The notes beneath the pieces are model-generated. The model saw only the letters and a list, made by a program, of their open reading frames with translations, was not told where the DNA came from and made no database searches. Positions 1,847 through 54,692 of a stretch of DNA of 64,000 nt are shown one piece after another (the first letter of the stretch is position 1; each line of letters begins with the position of its first letter). The stretch is taken from NCBI GenBank assembly GCA_038061795.1, contig JBBTYL010000002.1:105511-169510 (forward strand), written 5' to 3'. The position numbers and the translations under genes were made by a program. The DNA is from Patescibacteria group bacterium (GTDB lineage Bacteria > Patescibacteriota > Minisyncoccia > Phycocordibacterales > PALSA-1337).

Positions 1847-2749
1847 TCATTTAGGATAGACGAAATAAAAGGCCGGATCCGTCTCTGCATACGTTATGCC
1901 CAAGTAAATCAAATAGCTCTGTACGGCTCTCAACGCGTCGAAGAATCCCTTCTCAATTATAGGCCATTGCCCGGCAGCCTCTATGCCAGCCAAAGGATCG
2001 ATTGTTGCCTTCCTGAATGATTGCATCATGAAAAGTACAGAGTTTATGGCATTTACGAGATCTAAATGAAGGACTTCCATGGATTTCGGAGTCTCAATCT
2101 TAAGAAGCCCATTCACGATATTCTTGTAGCTCTCAATGACAGGATCAAGTTCTTTGAGAATGTCTGGGTTGCCCTTTTGCAAAGCATCTTTGACGATAAG
2201 TCCCTCATTTCTCGATCCAACGACGTATTTTTTAAAAACTGCCGTCATTTCGTTGCCGTATTGCTTTACCGCTTCTTTACTGCTATCGGTTTTTATCTTG
2301 ATCTCCGATATCAGATAGGGCTTTGCTTGCGTTGGGGGTATGGAATCAATCGTTTTCTGTATCAAATCCTGCTGGTTGTATTTGTCACCTGAAATGCCAA
2401 GCTGCCTTAGTTCCATGTAACGCGCAAAGAACTCTCGGCTCAAAGCGTCTATCGGTTCGATTTTTTCAGCAGTTTTTTGCGTCAAGTCCTTGATTATTGA
2501 GGCTGAAGGTGTGCGATTCTCCTTGCTTTTTGGGTCTTTAGGATTCGTCCCGATAAGAATTTCTTCCCAATCCTTCATCCCGTCCCCATCTGTGTCGAGG
2601 TCTTGGGCTGATCTGTCTATCGAATTTACAACCTCTGGTGCGACATAGACATTTTCAGCGTTTTTGTTCCTATATTCGGCGAACACAAAACTTCCTCCAA
2701 CGAGAAGGATTGCGATAAAAATGAACACGATGTTTTTGCCTATTTTCAC
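1847..2749 (-). CDS. Membrane-anchored protein of unknown function with a DxDxDG calcium-binding-like motif
   Basis: N-terminal transmembrane segment (IVFIFIAILLVGGSFVFA). Contains DLDTDGDGMKDWEEILIGTNPKDPKS, which resembles a thrombospondin type-3/EF-hand-like DxDxDG loop. The remainder looks helical and matches nothing I recognise. Confidence 0.7.
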   Translation of the reverse strand: MKIGKNIVFIFIAILLVGGSFVFAEYRNKNAENVYVAPEVVNSIDRSAQDLDTDGDGMKDWEEILIGTNPKDPKSKENRTPSASIIKDLTQKTAEKIEPIDALSREFFARYMELRQLGISGDKYNQQDLIQKTIDSIPPTQAKPYLISEIKIKTDSSKEAVKQYGNEMTAVFKKYVVGSRNEGLIVKDALQKGNPDILKELDPVIESYKNIVNGLLKIETPKSMEVLHLDLVNAINSVLFMMQSFRKATIDPLAGIEAAGQWPIIEKGFFDALRAVQSYLIYLGITYAETDPAFYFVYPK

Positions 2750-2783
2750 AGGTGGCAGTATTTTGGATACTGTGAAAATTATA

Positions 2784-3575
2784 TCAAGATACCAAGCTAT
2801 CTCCTACGATTTTTTTCCACACTTCAAGGCTTATATTCTCTGCACGGAGGTCTTTTGGCAATTTCTCCTTTTCCCAGATGGTCTCGAGCGCCCCTTTGGG
2901 TATTTTTTGCTCTAAATTTCTGATGACAACCTTTCTTTTATGAGCAAACCCCGCTTTCAAAACCTCAAAGAAGTATTTTTCGTCAATCTTCTCGAAAAAT
3001 GATTTGGAAATGTGCTGGATCATAAGCACCGCAGAGTCTACGTTTGGCATGGGACGGAAGAATTTGCGAGGGACTGAGCAAATATACTTCGGCTCTCCAT
3101 AAGCCTTAACTGAAATGGAGAGGATGCTTTCTTTCGCATCCACTACCCTCTTCGCGACCTCCTTCTGTACCATGACGACTATTTTTTGTGGAGGATTGTT
3201 TGATTCGAGAAATTTTCTCAAGAATTCCCCTGTGATGTAGTATGGGATGTTTGCGATGAGGACATAGTTGGCTTTTAATTTTTCATGGGCTGTCTCATCG
3301 AACTCAAGGATGTCGCCATGGATGATTTCAAGCTGCTGGTTTTTTATTTCAGCAAAAAACTTTTCTTGTAGGAAAGGGATTGCCCGATCATCCTTTTCGA
3401 TCGCGATTACGCGTGCCCCAGTCTCGAGCAATTTTGAAGTCAAAGCTCCCTTCCCTGGCCCGACCTCAAGCACGATGCTTTCTTTTGAAATTTCTCCAGC
3501 ATGTATCATCGTGGAAATCACCTGCGGCGCATGCAGGAAATTCTGTCCCAATGATTTTTTTGCTACGAAGCTCAT
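2784..3575 (-). CDS. rsmA: 16S rRNA (adenine1518/1519-N6)-dimethyltransferase
   Basis: KsgA/RsmA motifs SLGQNFL and the SAM-binding EVGPGKGALT. 263 aa is the expected length. Lies 5 nt downstream of pcrA on the same strand. Confidence 0.9.
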   Translation of the reverse strand: MSFVAKKSLGQNFLHAPQVISTMIHAGEISKESIVLEVGPGKGALTSKLLETGARVIAIEKDDRAIPFLQEKFFAEIKNQQLEIIHGDILEFDETAHEKLKANYVLIANIPYYITGEFLRKFLESNNPPQKIVVMVQKEVAKRVVDAKESILSISVKAYGEPKYICSVPRKFFRPMPNVDSAVLMIQHISKSFFEKIDEKYFFEVLKAGFAHKRKVVIRNLEQKIPKGALETIWEKEKLPKDLRAENISLEVWKKIVGDSLVS

Positions 3576-3580
3576 GATAT

Positions 3581-5524
3581 TTAAAAATCTATGAAGATAG
3601 CCTTTACTCCACGAGGAGCTTCTTCATCACCCTTTGATTCTATATGCTCATCGCCGATATCGGAAATGAAATTCGATGGAGCATTGACCTTCTGCGCGCC
3701 ATAGATCGTTCGAAGCTGAGCATAGCTCAAGAAAACTTTTTTTCTCGCGCGAGTGATAGCGACATAGAAGAGCCTCCTCTCTTCTTCCGACTGCGATTCG
3801 CTTTTATTTTCTTCACCCATTCTTTGGTGAGGAAACAAATCTTCTTCGAGTCCAGCGATGAAGACATAATCGAATTCGAGTCCTTTCGATGCATGCACCG
3901 TCATGAGCTTAACAGCGTTATTATCTTTTTCAAGTTCATCTTGATCAGTCGCTAGGGCGGCGTTTTCAAGAAGTTTTTCTATGGCTTCACCTGTTGGAAG
4001 CGCATCGTATTGCGAAGCTACGGAGACCAATTCCCTAAGGTTTTCAAGCTTTTCTTGCTCTTCTGGACCACCATTCCTATACACGGTTTCCATTCCGGTT
4101 TCCTTGATGATGAACTTAATGAGCGTCGAAGGATTTTCTTTCATTGAGACTGCTTTAATCCTTTCAAGGAGGTGGAGAAATTGTTCGACCTTGTTCCTCA
4201 ATGAGGGGCCGAGGGTTTTTTCTTGGCCAGTGATTACCTTTAGCATAGTCGCTTTTCCTATTCCGCGAGGCGGAACATTCACGATTCGAACCATGTCATT
4301 CGTACTTTCTCTGTTGAGCGAAGCCTTTATGAATGAAAGCACATCCTTCACCTCTTTTCTCTCAAAGAATTTTACGCCGAGCACCTGATACGGGATATTC
4401 TTATTCAAGAAAGCCTCTTCAAGGACTCGTGATTGGAAATTTGCTCGATACAAGACTGCAATTTCCCGCGCATTCGTTCCTTCAGAAATAAGCTTTCGCG
4501 CTTCATCGGCGACCATTCTCGCCTCCTCGTGTTCCGTATATGAAATAAGAAGCTCGATCTTTTCTCCCTCAGAATTTTTCGTGAAAAGATTCTTTTCACG
4601 GCGCATGAGATTTTTTTTGATGACGTTATTTGCCGCTGCAAGTATCGTCTGAGTTGAGCGATAATTTTCTTCAAGCGTAATGACTTTAGCTTCAGGATAT
4701 TCTTTTTCGAAATTCAAAATATTTTCTATGTCAGCGCCTCTCCATGAATATATATTCTGGTCCACATCGCCCACGACACAGATGTTCCTGTGTGCTTCAG
4801 CGAGTAGTGAAGCAATCTCATACTGAACCTTGTTCGTATCTTGATACTCATCGATGTGTATATAATTCCAAATTCTACTATAGTGTTTCTTTACCTCAGG
4901 ATGCATTTTAAGGATCATTGATGTTTTTAGCAGAAGATCGTCAAAATCGAGCGATTTCTCTTTCGCAAGCGTCGTTTCATACTTTTCCCAGACTTGTGCC
5001 ACTATTTTCTGAAAATATTCCTTCTGACTGTTCTTGTAAGTTGCCAAAGTGACCCCGTCCCCTTTCTCGCGGGAGATCACATTGAGGATCGTCCCCGGCT
5101 CATATTGCTTCGGATCAAGAGAGAGTTCCTCCAAAGCATCTTTTATCGCCCTTTTTGAGTCTCCTCTATCATAAATCGTAAAATGCCTAGTAATTCCCAA
5201 CAAAGCGCTATTTTCTTTGATTATATGGACACCTAGGGCGTGAAAAGTGCTGACGAAGGGTCTTTCGTTGAAAGAAATGGGAATATTAAGGGTTTTGTCG
5301 GTCTCGATAAGGTGAAAGACACGCTCTCGCATTTCCTTTGCGGCTTTGTTGGTGAAAGTTATTGCTAATATCTTCGATGGTTGCACGCCTTGCTTGATCA
5401 GGTTCAGTATCCTGTGCGTTATTGTTTTAGTCTTCCCAGCCCCAGCTCCAGCAATGATAAGAAGCGGGCCTTTTAGGGTTTCTACGGCTTCTTTCTGGCG
5501 AATATTTAGGCTGCTTTCATGCAT
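3581..5524 (-). CDS. pcrA: ATP-dependent DNA helicase, UvrD/PcrA family
   Basis: Walker A AGAGAGKTKT, DEYQDT (motif II), VGDVDQNIYSWRGA, and TVHASKGLEF near the C-terminus. Start moved from the track's GTG at 5551 to the ATG at 5524 (MHESSLNIRQKEAV), which lies 7 nt after TGGTATAGT (5540-5532, minus strand). Confidence 0.9.
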   Translation of the reverse strand: MHESSLNIRQKEAVETLKGPLLIIAGAGAGKTKTITHRILNLIKQGVQPSKILAITFTNKAAKEMRERVFHLIETDKTLNIPISFNERPFVSTFHALGVHIIKENSALLGITRHFTIYDRGDSKRAIKDALEELSLDPKQYEPGTILNVISREKGDGVTLATYKNSQKEYFQKIVAQVWEKYETTLAKEKSLDFDDLLLKTSMILKMHPEVKKHYSRIWNYIHIDEYQDTNKVQYEIASLLAEAHRNICVVGDVDQNIYSWRGADIENILNFEKEYPEAKVITLEENYRSTQTILAAANNVIKKNLMRREKNLFTKNSEGEKIELLISYTEHEEARMVADEARKLISEGTNAREIAVLYRANFQSRVLEEAFLNKNIPYQVLGVKFFERKEVKDVLSFIKASLNRESTNDMVRIVNVPPRGIGKATMLKVITGQEKTLGPSLRNKVEQFLHLLERIKAVSMKENPSTLIKFIIKETGMETVYRNGGPEEQEKLENLRELVSVASQYDALPTGEAIEKLLENAALATDQDELEKDNNAVKLMTVHASKGLEFDYVFIAGLEEDLFPHQRMGEENKSESQSEEERRLFYVAITRARKKVFLSYAQLRTIYGAQKVNAPSNFISDIGDEHIESKGDEEAPRGVKAIFIDF

Positions 5525-17580: not shown

Positions 17581-17655
17581 GCACCCGTAGTGAAATGGAT
17601 ATCATACCGGTCTTCGGAACCGTTGTTGGGGGTTCGAATCCCTCCGGGTGCACCA
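17581..17655 (+). tRNA. tRNA-Arg (anticodon TCG), CCA encoded
   Basis: Hand-folded cloverleaf. Acceptor GCACCCG/CGGGTGC, anticodon loop CT-TCG-GA, T-loop GGTTCGAATCC, discriminator A, then CCA. Confidence 0.85.
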
Positions 17656-17698: not shown

Positions 17699-17772
17699 GC
17701 GGGCATGGTTTAGTGGTAGAACACGTCCTTGCCAAGGACGAGACGGGAGTTCGATTCTCCCTGCCCGCACCA
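17699..17772 (+). tRNA. tRNA-Gly (anticodon GCC), CCA encoded
   Basis: Acceptor GCGGGCA/TGCCCGC, anticodon stem CGTCC/GGACG with loop TT-GCC-AA, T-arm GGGAGTTCGATTCTCCC, then A plus CCA. Confidence 0.9.
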
Positions 17773-18384: not shown

Positions 18385-18457
18385 CGGAGCGTGGTGTAAC
18401 GGCTAACATTCCTGTTTTGGGAACAGGCGACTCCGGGTTCGAATCCCGGCGCTCCGA
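18385..18457 (+). tRNA. tRNA-Pro (anticodon TGG), CCA not encoded
   Basis: Acceptor CGGAGCG/CGCTCCG, anticodon stem CCTGT/ACAGG with loop TT-TGG-GA, T-arm CCGGGTTCGAATCCCGG, discriminator A, followed by caa. Confidence 0.85.
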
Positions 18458-19002: not shown

Positions 19003-19073
19003 GCGGGACTAGTTTAATGGTAGAATAGAAGTTTTCCAAACTTTTGGTGGGAGTTCGATTCTCCCGTCCCGCA
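19003..19073 (+). tRNA. tRNA-Gly (anticodon TCC), CCA not encoded
   Basis: Acceptor GCGGGAC/GTCCCGC, anticodon stem GAAGT/ACTTT with loop TT-TCC-AA, T-arm GGGAGTTCGATTCTCCC, discriminator A, followed by cag. Confidence 0.85.
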
Positions 19074-20691: not shown

Positions 20692-21440
20692 ATGCTTGTA
20701 CTGCGCTGGAACGTTTGCAGCACTTTGTCTTTGATACGATGAAACGTTTCTGATTTAAGTGCATCAATGGAACGAGGAAAAGGGATTCCGTTCTCAATCG
20801 TATCCAGTATCGTGGTTGGATTTTTGCCCAGCACCAAGATTCGATGTGACAGATGCACAGCTTCCTCAATGTTGTGGGTGATGATGAGCACAGTTGGTCT
20901 GTATGATTCGTAATATCGAAGCAAGTGTTTTCGTAGGAGCAGGTTGTTCTCGTAATCGAGAGCCGAGAACGGCTCATCGATAAGAAGGAGAGTGGGGCGT
21001 GTCACAAGAGCCCTAATGAAGGCGAGGATCTGCTGCTGACCTCCGGAGAGTTGATAGGGATACGCATTCCAGTCGAATTGAAATTCGAAAACTGTCTGGA
21101 GTTCTTCTACTCGTTTTCGAATCTCTTCCTTAGACAAGCCTTGGATTTCAAGAGGAAAGGCAATGTTTTCAAAATTAGTTCTCCAGGGGAAGAGGGAATC
21201 ACGGTAATTTTGAAAGATATAACTCAAACGGAACTCTTTATCTTTGTCTATAGTTCGTTCGCCCTTATCAGGAGTAGTGATTCCCGCGATTATGTTCAAT
21301 AGTGTAGATTTTCCGGAACCGTTCGGGCCAAATATCGCGGTTATCTTTCGCGGCTCAATCTCCACGGAGAAATCCTTGAAGAGCAGGATTTTTCCGAAGC
21401 GCTTAACAAGGCCTTTGACTGTTACAGCGGACGTATTCAT
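20688..21440 (-). CDS. ABC transporter ATP-binding protein (NitT/TauT-type)
   Basis: Walker A GPNGSGKSTLLN, signature LSGGQQQ, Walker B LLLIDEPFSALD. Confidence 0.9.
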   Translation of the reverse strand: MNTSAVTVKGLVKRFGKILLFKDFSVEIEPRKITAIFGPNGSGKSTLLNIIAGITTPDKGERTIDKDKEFRLSYIFQNYRDSLFPWRTNFENIAFPLEIQGLSKEEIRKRVEELQTVFEFQFDWNAYPYQLSGGQQQILAFIRALVTRPTLLLIDEPFSALDYENNLLLRKHLLRYYESYRPTVLIITHNIEEAVHLSHRILVLGKNPTTILDTIENGIPFPRSIDALKSETFHRIKDKVLQTFQRSTSI

Positions 21441-22405
21441 TTATCGAATAGGAAAGCAGCCGCCGAGAGAGGTGAGGTGATGACATTATATTCTTTGAAT
21501 ACCCCAACGAACTTCTCTATCGCATCGATATCTGCCGAAGTGAAATCTTTGTACATCTTATAAACTGGAAGATTCACTTTGCTTGCAAGCTCTGGCGTGA
21601 GCGGTATATACGCAGGGAAATAGTGTCGTAGGCTATCAACATCCTTATCAATGTCTGCATGCGCCATTTCGAGCGCAGTCAAAGCTTTCTTTAACGATTC
21701 CGGATTCTCGTTTACGAACTTCACCGATACATTGCCGACCCCAGCATAGAATGGATCGGATACATAAACGAGATTAGGTGACTTGACGAGTATTTTTGAT
21801 ATATCAAGTGAATCGGCAACAGTAATCACTGGCTCGATGGCTAGAAGTGCGTCGATCTGCTTTGATGCAAGGGCTTGTGCTTGTAGAGGAATTGCAAGTT
21901 CGACCAATGTGAGATCCTTATCGATATCCAAACTATTTTTTAGGAATATATTGCGCGCAATCGTTTTCCATTGGATGCCAGGAAGTACTCCGACCTTCTT
22001 GCCTTTCAGATCGGCGATGCTTGCAATAGAGCTATCTTTTCCCACTAGTATTGCTTCGGCAATATGTTCTTTGTCACCTCCAGCAACGGCGAATACTTTG
22101 AGCGAATTTGGATTCTTACTCTCCGCAATCGCAGTGATTCCTGTTGCTGCCGCCAATGCCATATCTATGTGCCCGGAAATGAGTGCATCGATGATCTGGT
22201 TCGGCGCCTCGAATTTTGTTATTTCGGCACGGATGCCTTGTTCAGCAAAATAGCCTTTTTCCTGCGCTACGAAGAGAGGAAGGGCATGAACGGCTGGAAG
22301 ATAGCCAAAGCGGACCACCTGTTCTGCTGATTTTTCGTTGATACTTAAGGTTATACCTCCGATGATCAGAATTGCTATAACTACGATACTAATGATTTTT
22401 TTCAT
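21437..22405 (-). CDS. ABC transporter substrate-binding protein (NMT1/THI5/SsuA-like)
   Basis: N-terminal anchor sequence and a periplasmic-binding-protein type 2 layout (VRFGYLPAVHALPLFVAQEKGYF, KGKKVGVLPG). First gene of a three-gene operon with 4-nt overlaps. The substrate cannot be inferred. Confidence 0.8.
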   Translation of the reverse strand: MKKIISIVVIAILIIGGITLSINEKSAEQVVRFGYLPAVHALPLFVAQEKGYFAEQGIRAEITKFEAPNQIIDALISGHIDMALAAATGITAIAESKNPNSLKVFAVAGGDKEHIAEAILVGKDSSIASIADLKGKKVGVLPGIQWKTIARNIFLKNSLDIDKDLTLVELAIPLQAQALASKQIDALLAIEPVITVADSLDISKILVKSPNLVYVSDPFYAGVGNVSVKFVNENPESLKKALTALEMAHADIDKDVDSLRHYFPAYIPLTPELASKVNLPVYKMYKDFTSADIDAIEKFVGVFKEYNVITSPLSAAAFLFDK

Positions 22406-51737: not shown

Positions 51738-51980
51738 TTATATGATTCCTGCTTTCTTGAGAGTTGCGAATGCACCTCGCTTCTGGATGGTCTTGAGGGC
51801 TCGGGTAGAGATGGTAAGGATGAAGGATTTCTTGAGTTCAGGAACATAAATCTTCTTTTTTTGAAGATTGACGTACTTCCGCACCATTCCTGTAGGGTTG
51901 AACTGCGTAGCACGAGTGGCGTTTGAATATCCGCCCGCTACCATTGAACCTCGTTTTGTTATTGCACATACTTTAGCCAT
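51738..51980 (-). CDS. rpmB: 50S ribosomal protein L28
   Basis: MAKVCAITKRGSMVAGGYSNATRATQFNPTG... is canonical L28. The ATG at 51980 replaces the longer track ORF starting at 52076. Confidence 0.9.
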   Translation of the reverse strand: MAKVCAITKRGSMVAGGYSNATRATQFNPTGMVRKYVNLQKKKIYVPELKKSFILTISTRALKTIQKRGAFATLKKAGII

Positions 51981-52020
51981 AGTGTTAGTCATGCTATCAT
52001 AATCCATATATTTGGCAAGC

Positions 52021-52623
52021 ATGGACGCTTTAACCCTCATTATTTCTATAGTCATACTCATCATGTCAGTGGTCATCCACGAGCTTTCGCATGGTTATAC
52101 GGCTGAACTTTTAGGCGACCCTACTCCTAGGCTGCAAGGAAGGCTTACCCTCAATCCCCTGAAGCATCTCGAAGTTTTCGGTTCCTTGATAGTTCCACTC
52201 ATCACTTCAATGGCAGGATTCACCTTTGGCTGGGCCAAGCCAGTGCAGTGGAATCCTTACAATGTTAAGAATAAAAGATGGGGCGAACTGATGATTGCTA
52301 TCGCTGGACCAGTCTCGAATCTTCTTATTGCTGTGGTTTTTGGCCTTGTGCTACGTGCGGCTGGCCCGTCCCTTTCCGAATCATTCATTCAGATTTCCTT
52401 TTATGTGATTGCAATAAATATCGTCCTAGCGGTCTTCAACTTGGTCCCGATTCCGCCGCTCGACGGGTCAAAAGTCCTTTTTGCATTTCTCCCTGCGAGG
52501 TTTGCAAATGTAAGGGAAACGCTTGAGCGCTACTCGATTTTCTTCTTTTTGATACTGATCTTCTTTCTTTGGAGATTCGTCGAGCCGATTATTCCTTTCA
52601 TATTCAAGCTGATAGTTGGGTAG
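52021..52623 (+). CDS. Site-2 protease family (M50) membrane metalloprotease
   Basis: HELSHGY zinc motif in the first transmembrane segment, and a second ligand context NLVPIPPLDGSK. Start taken at the ATG at 52021 (the track uses the TTG at 52012). Confidence 0.8.
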   Translation: MDALTLIISIVILIMSVVIHELSHGYTAELLGDPTPRLQGRLTLNPLKHLEVFGSLIVPLITSMAGFTFGWAKPVQWNPYNVKNKRWGELMIAIAGPVSNLLIAVVFGLVLRAAGPSLSESFIQISFYVIAINIVLAVFNLVPIPPLDGSKVLFAFLPARFANVRETLERYSIFFFLILIFFLWRFVEPIIPFIFKLIVG

Positions 52624-52708
52624 GGTTAATTTTATTGCAAAATATATGTCCTATGATAGTGTTTAGGGCAGTCAAACTGAAATTTAAACCTACAACCAAG
52701 GCAAAATC

Positions 52709-53128
52709 ATGAGTATCACTTCTTTACCTGATGAGATTACTCAGGCTATTGCTCCGTTACGCGGAAACATCGACGAGATCGATTTTGAAATCATACGGCT
52801 TCTTGGTCAGCGAATCCGATTCGTAAGAGAAATCGGAGAATTGAAAAAGACACTTGGAACGCAGGTGAGAGATCATGGAAGGGAAAACGCTCAAATGCGC
52901 AAGATATTTGAACTAAGCCGTGAACAAAACGTGCCCCCAGGCTACACCGCCCTCGTCTTCCGTATGATTATCGAGGCTTCGGTGCGCATCCAGCAAGGAG
53001 AAGACGCCCCGACGACTTTCCGTGAAGGGCATTGCATCTGCTGTGGCTGGAACACTTCCGCCATGGAGCTCGACCCTGACCTTCATTGGCCGGTATGTAT
53101 CGTTTGTCGTCAGCCACTTTTCTTCTGA
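52709..53128 (+). CDS. AroQ-class chorismate mutase domain fused to a C-terminal Cys4 (zinc-ribbon-like) tail
   Basis: LRGNIDEIDFEIIRLLGQRIRFVREIGELKKTLGTQVRDHGRENAQMRKIFEL...LVFRMIIEASVRIQ aligns motif for motif with CM_2 (LR..I D..D..ll.LL..R......ig..K......v.D..RE.......lf..ii..S...Q). The tail is HCICCGW...WPVCIVC. Confidence 0.75.
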   Translation: MSITSLPDEITQAIAPLRGNIDEIDFEIIRLLGQRIRFVREIGELKKTLGTQVRDHGRENAQMRKIFELSREQNVPPGYTALVFRMIIEASVRIQQGEDAPTTFREGHCICCGWNTSAMELDPDLHWPVCIVCRQPLFF

Positions 53129-53158
53129 TCAGAAAATTATCATCGCCGAACAAACAAA

Positions 53159-53198
53159 GGCACGGATTCCAAGCGGGGTCCGTGCCTGATTTTATTTA
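53159..53198 (+). terminator. Intrinsic terminator after the chorismate mutase gene
   Basis: GGCACGGA-ttccaagcgggg-TCCGTGCC forms an 8-bp GC-rich stem (53159-53186) followed by TGATTTTATTTATT. Confidence 0.6.
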
Positions 53199-53226
53199 TT
53201 GACAAAAATTTCTATCGGAGTAAGAT
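53199..53226 (+). promoter_or_regulatory. Sigma70-like promoter with no ORF behind it
   Basis: Consensus -35 TTGACA (53199-204), a 16-nt spacer, then TAAGAT (53221-26). The predicted transcription start at about 53233 leads straight into a long hairpin, not a start codon. Confidence 0.45.
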
Positions 53227-53577
53227 ATTCCCAGTCCCTGATTTCGTTTGTCGGGAAGGAAAACGGTTCACCCCGTTTTGACTACCGAGATCAGGCTAGG
53301 TCATTGGCACGACTTGCCAAGATTGGATCTAGAAGGCCTAAAATGGCTGGTTATCTATACCTCCTTGCGTCATGGCGAGATACTATCTCCGCCTAGCAGT
53401 CACCTCAATCAAAAGAAAAGGGTGTGCAAAAATAGAAGTTTCAGATTCGTATGCTGGATCATCGATTTACGACAAAGTTGACTCGCAAGAGCAAAGTCGC
53501 ATCTTGGTTCGTCAACAGCGATGTAGGCGTCCAATAGGATCCGTTCCTATCGAAAAATTACCTTTCCACGGTTTTCC

Positions 53578-53615
53578 AAAGCGCGTTTCCTGCAAGGATT
53601 CGCGCTTTTCTTTAT
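53578..53615 (+). terminator. Intrinsic-terminator-like hairpin about 150 nt upstream of rpsL
   Basis: AAAGCGCG-tttcctgcaaggatt-CGCGCTTT forms an 8-bp stem followed by TCTTTAT. Confidence 0.5.
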
Positions 53616-53759
53616 ATAATTTACCTTTTCCTCCTTATATGCTAGAGTAACCCCACGTTCAAATAGAGCTTAGAGGTGAGTAACCGCTTGGTGAAAACAA
53701 TCAACTCTTTGCAGAATTGAGCCCCATTATCAGGTTTTATTAAAAAATTAATATAAAGA

Positions 53760-54191
53760 ATGCCAACAATCAATCAGCTTGTGCGTAAGAATCGCGCTCG
53801 ATTCACGAGAAAGTCAAAGTCGATCGCTCTCACAAAGAGTTTTAATACTATCAAGAACCGCCCTAACTATTTCCCATCTCCATTCAAGCGAGGTGTATGT
53901 ATAAAGGTTACGACAAAGACTCCAAAGAAGCCGAACTCCGCTATCCGAAAGATTGCTCGAGTACGACTTTCAAATGGAATGGAAGTTACAGCCTACATCC
54001 CAGGAGAAGGACATAACCTTCAGGAACACTCAGTGGTTCTCCTTCGAGGTGGACGAGTAAAGGACGTAGGTCTCCGATACACGGTGGTTCGAGGAGTGCT
54101 CGATGCAGCCGGAGTAGAGAAGCGACGAAAGGGTCGAAGCCAGTACGGAAACAAGAAGCCTAAGGAAAATAAAGCGGCAACGAAGGCTTAA
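53760..54191 (+). CDS. rpsL: 30S ribosomal protein S12
   Basis: [10 protein letters not shown]...[10 protein letters not shown]...[21 protein letters not shown] is canonical S12. Confidence 0.97.
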
Positions 54192-54224
54192 TACTATTTA
54201 TCTAACTTAATTTAAAATACTACT

Positions 54225-54692
54225 ATGCGAAGACGAATAAAGAATAAGCATCCGTTGAAGCCAGAGCCAGTTTACGAATCCGTAAAGGTTGCTAAGCTTG
54301 TGAATTACGTGATGGATTCAGGAAAGAAGAATGCAGCGCGGAAGATCGTTTATGATTGCATGACAATCATCAAGGAAAGGACGAAGTCTGAGCCAATCGA
54401 AGTCCTCGAGACAGCATTGAAGAACACGATGCCTGCTATGGAAGTACGATCACGACGAGTGGGAGGTGCAAACTATCAGGTTCCTCGAGAAGTCCGACCA
54501 GAACGACAGCGATCTCTTTCTATGAAATGGATTGTTCTTGCTGCTCGATCAAAGAAGGGAAAGCCTATGGCAGACAAGCTTGCTGATGAGATTATTGCAG
54601 CATCTAAAAACGAAGGAGAAGCAGTCAAGAAGCGAGAAAATACTCATAAGATGGCAGAGGCAAACAAGGCCTTCGCTCACTTTGCTTGGTAA
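54225..54692 (+). CDS. rpsG: 30S ribosomal protein S7
   Basis: Canonical S7 (PEPVYESVKVAKLVNYVM..GKK..A..I; EVRSRRVGGANYQVP). Confidence 0.97.
   Translation: MRRRIKNKHPLKPEPVYESVKVAKLVNYVMDSGKKNAARKIVYDCMTIIKERTKSEPIEVLETALKNTMPAMEVRSRRVGGANYQVPREVRPERQRSLSMKWIVLAARSKKGKPMADKLADEIIAASKNEGEAVKKRENTHKMAEANKAFAHFAW

Follow-up and report, generated by a model that had tools for sequence, protein, structure and literature searches.

A candidate large structured non-coding RNA upstream of rpsL in a groundwater Patescibacteria genome

Few bacterial RNAs exceed approximately 300 nt and at the same time carry many conserved helices. Among them, those with a known function are central machines (rRNAs, RNase P, transfer-messenger RNA (tmRNA), self-splicing introns and guide-RNA scaffolds), and OLE, ROOL, GOLLD and raiA are long-standing puzzles. 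Here we analyse a candidate for a further large RNA, in a 64-kb stretch of DNA (the window; 64,000 nt of contig JBBTYL010000002.1, assembly GCA_038061795.1) from a groundwater Patescibacteria (Paceibacterota-like) genome. The element, which we name Z, is a promoter-to-terminator unit on the plus strand at window positions 53199-53614, upstream of rpsL. From comparison with its homologues, we propose that Z is probably a gene in its own right, whose product is a structured non-coding RNA outside the described families, approximately 385 nt long in the window and as long as 455 nt in a relative.

In several respects, Z resembles OLE, ROOL, GOLLD, raiA and HEARO. It is a stand-alone unit of more than 200 nt with many conserved helices, conserved unpaired segments and no open reading frame (ORF); its peripheral stems vary in length, its phylogenetic spread is patchy, and it lies in variable (cargo) DNA. 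It differs from these RNAs in its helix topology and in being found, so far, only in one narrow Paceibacterota clade.

The Z unit and its homologues

The non-coding gap between a CM_2 chorismate-mutase ORF and rpsL measures 631 nt (53129-53759), in line with the approximately 630 bp given by the original prediction, which had proposed a candidate structured RNA unit at this place. The sequence features named in that prediction are present, displaced by at most 1-2 nt. Those that delimit Z are as follows, together with the terminator upstream:

53158-53197, plus strand: intrinsic terminator of the chorismate-mutase ORF, a 13-bp hairpin (53158-53187) and T-tract reported by a terminator scan
53199-53226, plus strand: Z promoter, sigma-70-type, with -35 TTGACA (53199-53204), a 16-nt spacer and -10 TAAGAT (53221-53226)
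53233-53614, plus strand: Z RNA, a predicted transcript of approximately 385 nt, from a predicted start near 53233 to the end of the U-tract
53578-53614, plus strand: Z terminator, AAAGCGCG-UU-UCCU-GCA-AGGA-UU-CGCGCUUU, then UCUUUAU

The originally proposed TTGACA-16-TAAGAT promoter is the sole promoter-like site that a promoter scan found in the 1.7 kb from 52600 to 54300, and the upstream chorismate-mutase terminator insulates Z from upstream transcription. At the 3' end, the terminator-like hairpin that had been predicted spans 53578-53608, is followed by TTTTCTTTAT and has a local folding energy of -18.3 kcal/mol.

Close relatives were reached via M50 site-2 protease homologues with 83-93% amino-acid identity, and the contigs that carry them. 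Two of these contigs contain a distinct homologue of Z, which we compare with the window copy W (53231-53614, 384 nt): L094, from the 0.1 µm fraction at Hainich, has a 388-nt copy (2722-3109, 70% identical; called A), and L096 (GCA_974884615.1) has a 455-nt copy (4388-4842, 57% identical; called B). The M50-rpsL gaps of L094 (841 nt) and L096 (922 nt) are gene-free and match the window from the promoter on. All three sequences have a promoter of the form TTGACAAAAATTT...TA(A/G)GAT at the homologous place, and in each gap the scan reports no other; in the relatives, it reads TTGACAAAAATTT...TAGGAT (L094, 2690-2717; L096, 4356-4383). In all three cases, a terminator, which differs in sequence between them, precedes this promoter within approximately 12 nt. 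In L094 and L096, ACGGUUUUCCAAAGCGCGUUUCCUGCAAGGAUUCGCGCUUUU at the 3' end recurs with hardly a change. Both homologues thus keep the promoter and the terminator and, as shown below, most of the helices by compensatory changes, which bears out the original proposal of a structured RNA unit.

Beyond these copies, an nhmmer profile of Z recovered identical contigs of the window genotype, plus a terminator fragment of 42 nt in L088, and no second copy in the window or in 103 fetched loci. At the syntenic site, Z is absent from L098 and L103, and in L088 only its last ~50 nt are left. Among more distant relatives derived from S12 (at least 80 loci of GTDB representatives, with at most 81% S12 identity), blastn and nhmmer found nothing Z-like. 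A metagenome scan with an exact 20-mer from the 5' hairpin of Z gave three matches, which is chance level; IMG/VR scans with four Z motifs gave nothing or chance-level matches, and blastn of Z against a phage collection gave no match. Z is probably accessory: some close lineages carry it, and others lack it or have it deleted.

Since Z contains three overlapping same-strand ORFs (65, 77 and 92 aa), it could be a frameshifted gene or encode a small protein. The original prediction had called these ORFs unconvincing, and we agree. Codon periodicity is lacking in Z, where each of the three phases takes an even share of the substitutions (chi-square p = 0.84, 0.70 and 0.33); in contrast, the 96 substitutions that separate two genotypes in the neighbouring M50 gene fall nearly all at every third base. 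Insertions and deletions in Z are often not multiples of 3 (gap runs include 1, 2, 4, 7 and 8 nt), and no ORF is shared among the three sequences. A Pfam search with the ORFs of Z gave no match, the 92-aa ORF is not recorded as a called gene, and gene callers placed no gene at Z in any assembly. L094 and L096 have short ORFs after an SD (Shine-Dalgarno)-like GGAGG, with no counterpart in the window. Given the absence of both ORF homology and codon periodicity, a frameshifted pseudogene or a small protein was rejected.

Predicted fold and compensatory changes

Comparison of the three sequences gave a curated model of approximately 13 helices with 84 non-terminator pairs. Its elements are listed below in window coordinates, all on the plus strand; where three sequences are given, the order is W, A, B.

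53237-53295: 5' domain, with outer stem P2 (53237-53246 with 53286-53295) and inner stem P3 (53260-53266 with 53273-53279), from the minimum free energy fold
53250-53259: 5' strand of the long-range helix PK, GUCGGGAAGG
53296-53302 with 53326-53332, and 53304-53309 with 53315-53320: P4 and P4a
53335-53338 with 53345-53348: P5 (GGCC/GGCU, GGC/GCC, AGGGU/ACCCU)
53349-53365: conserved single-stranded segment GGUUAUCUAUACCUCCU, unpaired in all three sequences
53365-53368 with 53396-53399, and 53374-53381 with 53385-53393: P6 (UUGC/GCAG, CCGC/GUGG, CCUGCGUA/UAUGCAGG) and P6a
53401-53405 with 53420-53424: P7 (CACCU/GGGUG, CACCC/GGGUG, CAUGGC/GCUAUG), three double changes
53423-53438: most conserved block UGUGCAAAAAUAGAAG, invariant save for Y/R positions and running into P8
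53438-53444 with 53454-53460: P8 (GUUUCAG/CUGGAUC, GAUUGGC/GCCAAUC, GGUUCAAU/GUUGAAUC)
53470-53549: 3' domain, with P10 (53470-53473 with 53496-53499) enclosing P9
53482-53491: GNRA hairpin P9, CUC-GCAA-GAG
about 53510-53529: variable hairpin P11, of 20, 26 and 50 nt
53535-53539 with 53545-53549: P12 (UAGGA/UCCUA in W, GGGAA/UUUCC in B), three double changes
53561-53569: 3' strand of PK, CCUUUCCAC

Many of these helices differ in sequence between the three copies and retain their pairing. The strands of P2, CCTGATTTCG (53237-53246) and CGAGATCAGG (53286-53295) in the window, still pair in L096 via C-G to U-A and G-C to U-A changes, and P3 reads AAAACGG/CCGUUUU, AAUGGG/UCCAUU and AAGCA/UGCUU in W, A and B. 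The hairpin at 53237-53295 and its AAAACGG/CCGTTTT stem thus stand as originally described; the loop, given as TTCAC, is in fact TTCACC, and a 3-bp GTC/GAC helix placed inside is not conserved in the relatives. The TTGGCA/TGCCAA hairpin of the prediction corresponds to P4a, which is UUGGCA/UGCCAA, ACAGC/GCUGU and UCGGC/GCCGA in the three sequences, with three double changes and 94% pairing on an alignment that was not fitted to the structure. Likewise, the predicted hairpin GGCGAGAT/ATCTCCGCC is P6a (53374-53381 with 53385-53393). P10 has three double changes (CGAC/GUCG, GCAGC/GCUGC, CGAU/AUCG), and the P8 loop of L096 holds a 52-nt insertion. A helix GUUGAC/GUCAAC (53477-53482 with 53510-53515) that appears in the single-sequence fold of the window was discarded, as it is not conserved in the relatives.

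Between P2 and P3 lies a conserved internal loop, UUyGUyGGGrAGG. The GGGAAGG in it had been taken for a bulge; it is instead one strand of the conserved long-range helix PK, in which GGGAAGG (53253-53259) pairs with CCUUUCC (53561-53567). RNAalifold predicts PK in all three sequences, and on the unfitted alignment 92.6% of its cells are paired; A-U has become G-C by a double change, and G.U has become G-C. In L094, the 5' strand is GGGGAGG and the 3' strand CCUCCCCAC (CCUCCCC). As the 5' strand of PK is located inside the P2 internal loop, P2 and PK would make a pseudoknot if both form.

Statistical comparisons favour a conserved structure. The single-sequence plus-strand fold of the window copy is moderately better than dinucleotide shuffles (z = -2.9). 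The RNAalifold consensus of the MAFFT alignment reaches -60.1 kcal/mol, compared to -35.4 ± 4.4 kcal/mol in 200 column shuffles, none of which was as low (z = -5.6); without the invariant terminator, z is -4.1. Compensatory changes occur in 25 of the 91 RNAalifold pairs. When the curated helices are mapped from W onto the MAFFT alignment, which is free of any bias from hand-fitting, 81.6% of the cells are paired versus 38-50% with the partners slid, and there are 17 double-change pairs versus 8.3 ± 2.1 after shuffling (0/500 as many) and 2-7 after sliding. Double changes above the controls in two homologues are the conservation and covariation to be expected if the original prediction is right, and a coding signature is lacking. 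The curated model has 18 G.U pairs and 4 A.C mismatches on the plus strand, an excess that favours this strand and agrees with the orientation of the promoter and terminator.

Several points weigh against Z as a structured RNA gene. In the hand-curated model, 223 of 232 cells are paired (96%, versus 37-44% slid) and 32 of the 84 pairs show double changes (7 with any break; 1-5 slid), counts that lean towards the model because the alignment was hand-fitted to the structure. There are only three distinct Z sequences, all from one narrow clade, so that an R-scape-type covariation statistic is without power. Identity between W and L096 is 57%, barely above the 50% at third codon positions of the neighbouring M50 gene, which indicates weak primary-sequence constraint outside the conserved blocks. 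The 3' hairpin was missed by a simple terminator scan, because its stem has a 2x2 internal loop, and the transcript itself is predicted from promoter and terminator sequence. Finally, RNAalifold keeps PK and folds the P2 strands otherwise, so that P2 and PK cannot both be confirmed and may not coexist.

The small number of sequences and the low identity to L096 would also suit non-functional intergenic DNA or a decaying pseudogene, in which case the apparent structure would be a by-product of the alignment and a few stable hairpins. Against this stand the missing ORF homology and codon periodicity, the identical positions of promoter and terminator in three sequences, a consensus fold better than 200 of 200 column shuffles, and double changes that exceed both types of control on the unfitted alignment. 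We consider a non-functional Z highly improbable.

If the fold of the structured RNA is as modelled from the three sequences, it would be a compact structure, for the most part a string of hairpins (P2/P3, P4/P4a, P5, P6/P6a, P7, P8, P10/P9, P11 and P12), tied together by PK, which would fold the 3' end back onto the 5' hairpin at its internal loop. Four conserved unpaired segments, GGUUAUCUAUACCUCCU, UGUGYAAAARUAGAAG, AUCAUYGAUUU and AAAGUUG, would be the likely functional core or binding surface. The variable peripheral stems (the P8 loop, P9 and P11) would be typical of RNAs in which function resides in a core and not in the periphery.

Comparison with known RNA families

Searches with Rfam 15 at E <= 10 gave only chance-level matches in the 631-nt gap, most of them at the terminator hairpin in the wrong orientation, and again only chance-level matches in L094 and L096; as to Z, no known family was matched in the window, L094 or L096, as the proposal of a new RNA would have it. 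The Rfam 15 models unmatched in Z include 6S, riboswitches, T-box, group I and II introns, small ribozymes, HEARO, ROOL, GOLLD, OLE and raiA. ARAGORN found no tRNA or tmRNA in this region of the window or in five related loci. In the 64-kb window as a whole, Rfam 15 at gathering thresholds found no gene for rRNA, RNase P, signal recognition particle (SRP) RNA, tmRNA or 6S RNA; its sole matches are four tRNA genes:

17581-17652: tRNA gene
17699-17769: tRNA gene
18385-18457: tRNA gene
19003-19073: tRNA gene

The absence of the housekeeping RNAs from the rest of the window raises the question of whether Z could be one of them (RNase P, SRP, tmRNA or 6S), so diverged that standard models miss it. 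Its size would fit RNase P RNA and tmRNA. The models Bacteria_small_SRP and Bacteria_large_SRP gave no match at the gathering score and none at E <= 10 in the window, L094 and L096. The same holds at E <= 10 for RF00010, RF00011 and the archaeal RNase P models, for which RNase P RNAs of the Candidate Phyla Radiation (CPR) scoring ~5 bits would fall below what the tool reports. In 10 of 35 circular CPR genomes, RNase P RNAs are reported to be detectable only far below the Rfam thresholds, with scores down to approximately 5 bits (PMC8172020), and because such RNAs escape the thresholds, Rfam silence alone is not decisive.

We therefore also weigh hallmark motifs and architecture. With at most one mismatch allowed, neither the RNase P P4 motif (GGAAAGUCC ... 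ACAGAA-N-GGCUUA) nor CR-II (GGUGAAA) occurs at homologous positions in the three sequences. CR-I, CR-V, the SRP helix-8 motif and the acceptor, T-arm and CCA end of tmRNA are likewise missing from homologous positions. This motif search and ARAGORN agree with the original prediction, which had found no P4 motif and no tmRNA end. With RNase P RNA, Z shares its length, a long-range helix that joins the 5' region to a near-3' region, and a GNRA hairpin. It differs in lacking the P4 sequence, the CR-I to CR-V motifs and the P1 terminal helix, and its hairpin string with one long-range helix is unlike the nested, multi-branched P1-P18 core. Moreover, Z appears dispensable at the syntenic site, missing in L098 and mostly deleted in L088, and it is highly divergent (57-70% identity).

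For SRP RNA, the original prediction had pointed to a 17-nt stretch matching the helix-8 core in 12 positions, and L096 contains GGAAGCAG. The helix-8 motif is a GNRA-capped stem with GGAA/AGCA loops, and Z has no such helix: the stretch belongs to the long-range helix and a covarying stem, and varies among the three sequences (GUCGGGAAGGAAAACGG / GUUGGGGAGGAAAUGGG / GUUGGGAGGAAGCAGAUG). The likeness is thus due to chance, and SRP RNA was rejected. Overall, a diverged housekeeping RNA is an extremely improbable identity for Z.

The M50-rpsL junction and the rpsL leader

The genes and signals around Z in the window are as follows:

51738-52076, minus strand: L28
52021-52623: M50 site-2 protease gene
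52709-53128: CM_2 chorismate-mutase-like ORF (Pfam E = 1.7e-21)
53620-53648, plus strand: rpsL promoter-like site, TTTACC-17-TGcTAGAGT, read by eye (8/12, below the scan threshold)
53620-53759, plus strand: rpsL leader region, outside Z, with the promoter-like site and then a conserved ~110-nt leader with a covarying hairpin
53760-54191, plus strand: rpsL, followed by rpsG and fusA

The position of Z directly upstream of rpsL on the same strand, with a terminator-like hairpin ~150 nt before the start codon, is reminiscent of ribosomal-protein leaders such as rpsL_psuedo, rpsL_ricks and S15. Z could accordingly be a cis-acting leader or attenuator of the str operon (rpsL-rpsG-fusA), in which the 3' hairpin would be a terminator regulated, for example, by binding of S12 or S7. 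However, what lies between 53620 and the ATG is conserved as a unit apart, with its promoter-like site and its own covarying hairpin, so that Z is cut off from rpsL by a terminator and a second promoter-like site. This promoter-like site and the leader are kept in L094, L096 and L098, and in L098, where Z is absent, the rpsL block starts 9-10 nt past the M50 stop codon. The presence of this conserved block downstream of Z, and without Z in L098, leads us to regard Z as an independent unit and not as the rpsL leader. In addition, rpsL lacks Z in L103 and in the distant loci L006, L007, L009, L011, L012 and L014, and in L088 the Z terminator stands beside a different gene, directly 3' of the chorismate-mutase homologue. 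At 385-455 nt, Z is also several times longer than known ribosomal-protein leaders, and the sole Rfam match to such a leader (S15; 13.8 bits, E = 1.6) is on the minus strand. A leader function of Z is thus very unlikely.

A better candidate for an S12/S7 regulatory leader of the str operon would be the rpsL leader itself. Pairing of its hairpin AGAGGUGAGUAACCGCUUGGUGAAAACAAUCAACUCU is kept via compensatory changes in five lineages (AGAG/CUCU, AGGA/UCCU, AGGG/CCCU). A conserved leader of ~110 nt is unusual for an otherwise leaderless-looking genome. Only 2 of the 56 long ORFs in the window have an SD-like motif upstream, and many start codons are preceded, at ~7-12 nt, by a TATAAT-like box (e.g., 48527, 38984, 32136, 21437-22405). 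The rarity of SD motifs, together with boxes so close to the starts, suggests that leaderless mRNAs are widespread in this genome. As it hardly uses SD sites and many starts look leaderless, an anti-SD role of the unpaired segment at 53349-53365 was rejected, and so was a role of the motif ACCUCCU as an anti-SD sponge or an SD-targeting seed.

The content of the M50-rpsL gap differs among close relatives:

L098: nothing
L094 and L096: X (~150 nt), Y (~100 nt), then Z
window: chorismate mutase followed by Z
L088: X, a chorismate-mutase homologue (58% identical) and the Z terminator
L103: two unknown proteins
L100-L102: APH-like kinase gene downstream of M50; contigs end before rpsL
L094 2413-2690, L096 4065-4356, L088 424-585: non-coding units X and Y (in L088, X), between the M50 stop codon and Z

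X ends in GGGGUCGGAACCGCAAGGAACUGACCCCAUUUUUU and lies upstream of the chorismate-mutase homologue in L088; Y has two hairpins, a terminator and, by eye, a TTGTAT-17-TACAAT promoter. Both have the appearance of promoter-to-terminator units; the terminator-like hairpins and U-tracts are clear, and the promoters were read by eye and are unreported by the promoter scan. Neither unit is present in the window, and neither has an Rfam match.

Among the S12 matches listed, the GTDB representatives that come nearest are metagenome-assembled genomes of Kaiserbacteria, Taylorbacteria and Paceibacterota, and the identical S12 protein is also found in GCA_964357215.1 and in assemblies from Hainich well H41. 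In most S12-derived distant loci, such as the six named above, M50 abuts rpsL. These relatives have no similar DNA, and several have M50 followed by rpsL, which leads us to view the chorismate-mutase gene and the 631-nt gap, judging by these comparisons, as lineage-specific. The CM_2 protein (52709-53128) has a single detectable homologue (58% identity) among 5.8 billion proteins, encoded on the L088 contig. Its C-terminal tail is Cys-rich and zinc-ribbon-like (CICCGW...CIVCRQ), and a solitary chorismate mutase is odd in a metabolically reduced Patescibacteria genome.

The locus also shows the M50-rpsL junction of these organisms to be a site of cargo and recombination. In a lineage of the L087/L099 type, M50 is only ~78% identical, and from 52591 up to at least 53173 this lineage matches the window at 100% identity; independent assemblies break at 52591/52645, 53173, 53438 and 53693/53747 (loci L081-L090 and L099). 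This identity beside a diverged M50 gene and the contig breaks at the locus point to recent exchange and to genotypes that co-occur. We nevertheless rejected a discrete mobile cassette of 1.1 kb (52591-53692): contigs of several assemblies end at 55-mer overlaps (52591-52645 and 53693-53747), which are overlaps of the assembly graph, and L082 continues at 99.7% identity for 1.9 kb further right. The safe claim is a variable region common to co-occurring genotypes.

Such a setting would also suit a mobile or selfish element, with Z as its RNA or its relic (for instance, a non-autonomous RNA derived from an insertion sequence (IS) or an intron) that rides as cargo in a recombination hot spot; the varied gap contents, the 100%-identical copy and the contig breaks can all be read in this way. 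Yet Z is single-copy in the 64-kb window and 107 fetched loci, and no transposase, reverse transcriptase or integrase lies nearby. On reading the junctions defined by L088 and L098, we found no convincing terminal inverted repeats or target duplication, and hence no hallmark of an IS or a miniature inverted-repeat transposable element (MITE). The Rfam intron, ribozyme and omega-RNA models are silent. The promoter and terminator are conserved and the helices are kept by compensatory change, which points to selection on the RNA itself. A mobile-element origin is, in our view, scarcely likely. Direct repeats (GAAAATTA / GAAAAATTA) had suggested a specific variant, a 430-nt MITE-like insertion in the 3' end of the chorismate-mutase gene. 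This variant was dropped because L094 and L096 have Z without that gene, and the state of L088 is better explained by the loss of most of Z through deletion. The first ~250 nt of the 1371-nt L088 contig (within 1-300) encode an AT-rich RimP-like fragment, unrelated to the remainder. Probably this contig is a chimera, or else M50 is truncated there; its right-hand neighbour, a minus-strand membrane-like ORF, has to be treated with caution for this reason.

Of the identities considered in the original prediction, something new fits best, and both a housekeeping RNA and a ribosomal-protein leader are disfavoured. CPR genomes are tiny and have almost no spare DNA, and since Z is a structured unit of 385-455 nt with a consensus promoter, it is unlikely to be idle. 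Speculatively, the independent RNA proposed here would most likely act in trans and not in cis on rpsL, serving as a scaffold that binds protein or RNA or, possibly, as a catalyst. A bolder possibility, which we regard as rather unlikely on present evidence, is that Z is the founder of a new class of large pseudoknotted functional RNAs (a ribozyme or the core of a ribonucleoprotein) specific to ultra-small Paceibacterota, located with X and Y in a horizontally exchanged "RNA island" beside the str operon. If the Z family extends beyond the three sequences, it would add another orphan to the large RNAs, from a region of the tree that is little explored, and be a concrete target for metatranscriptomics and biochemistry.

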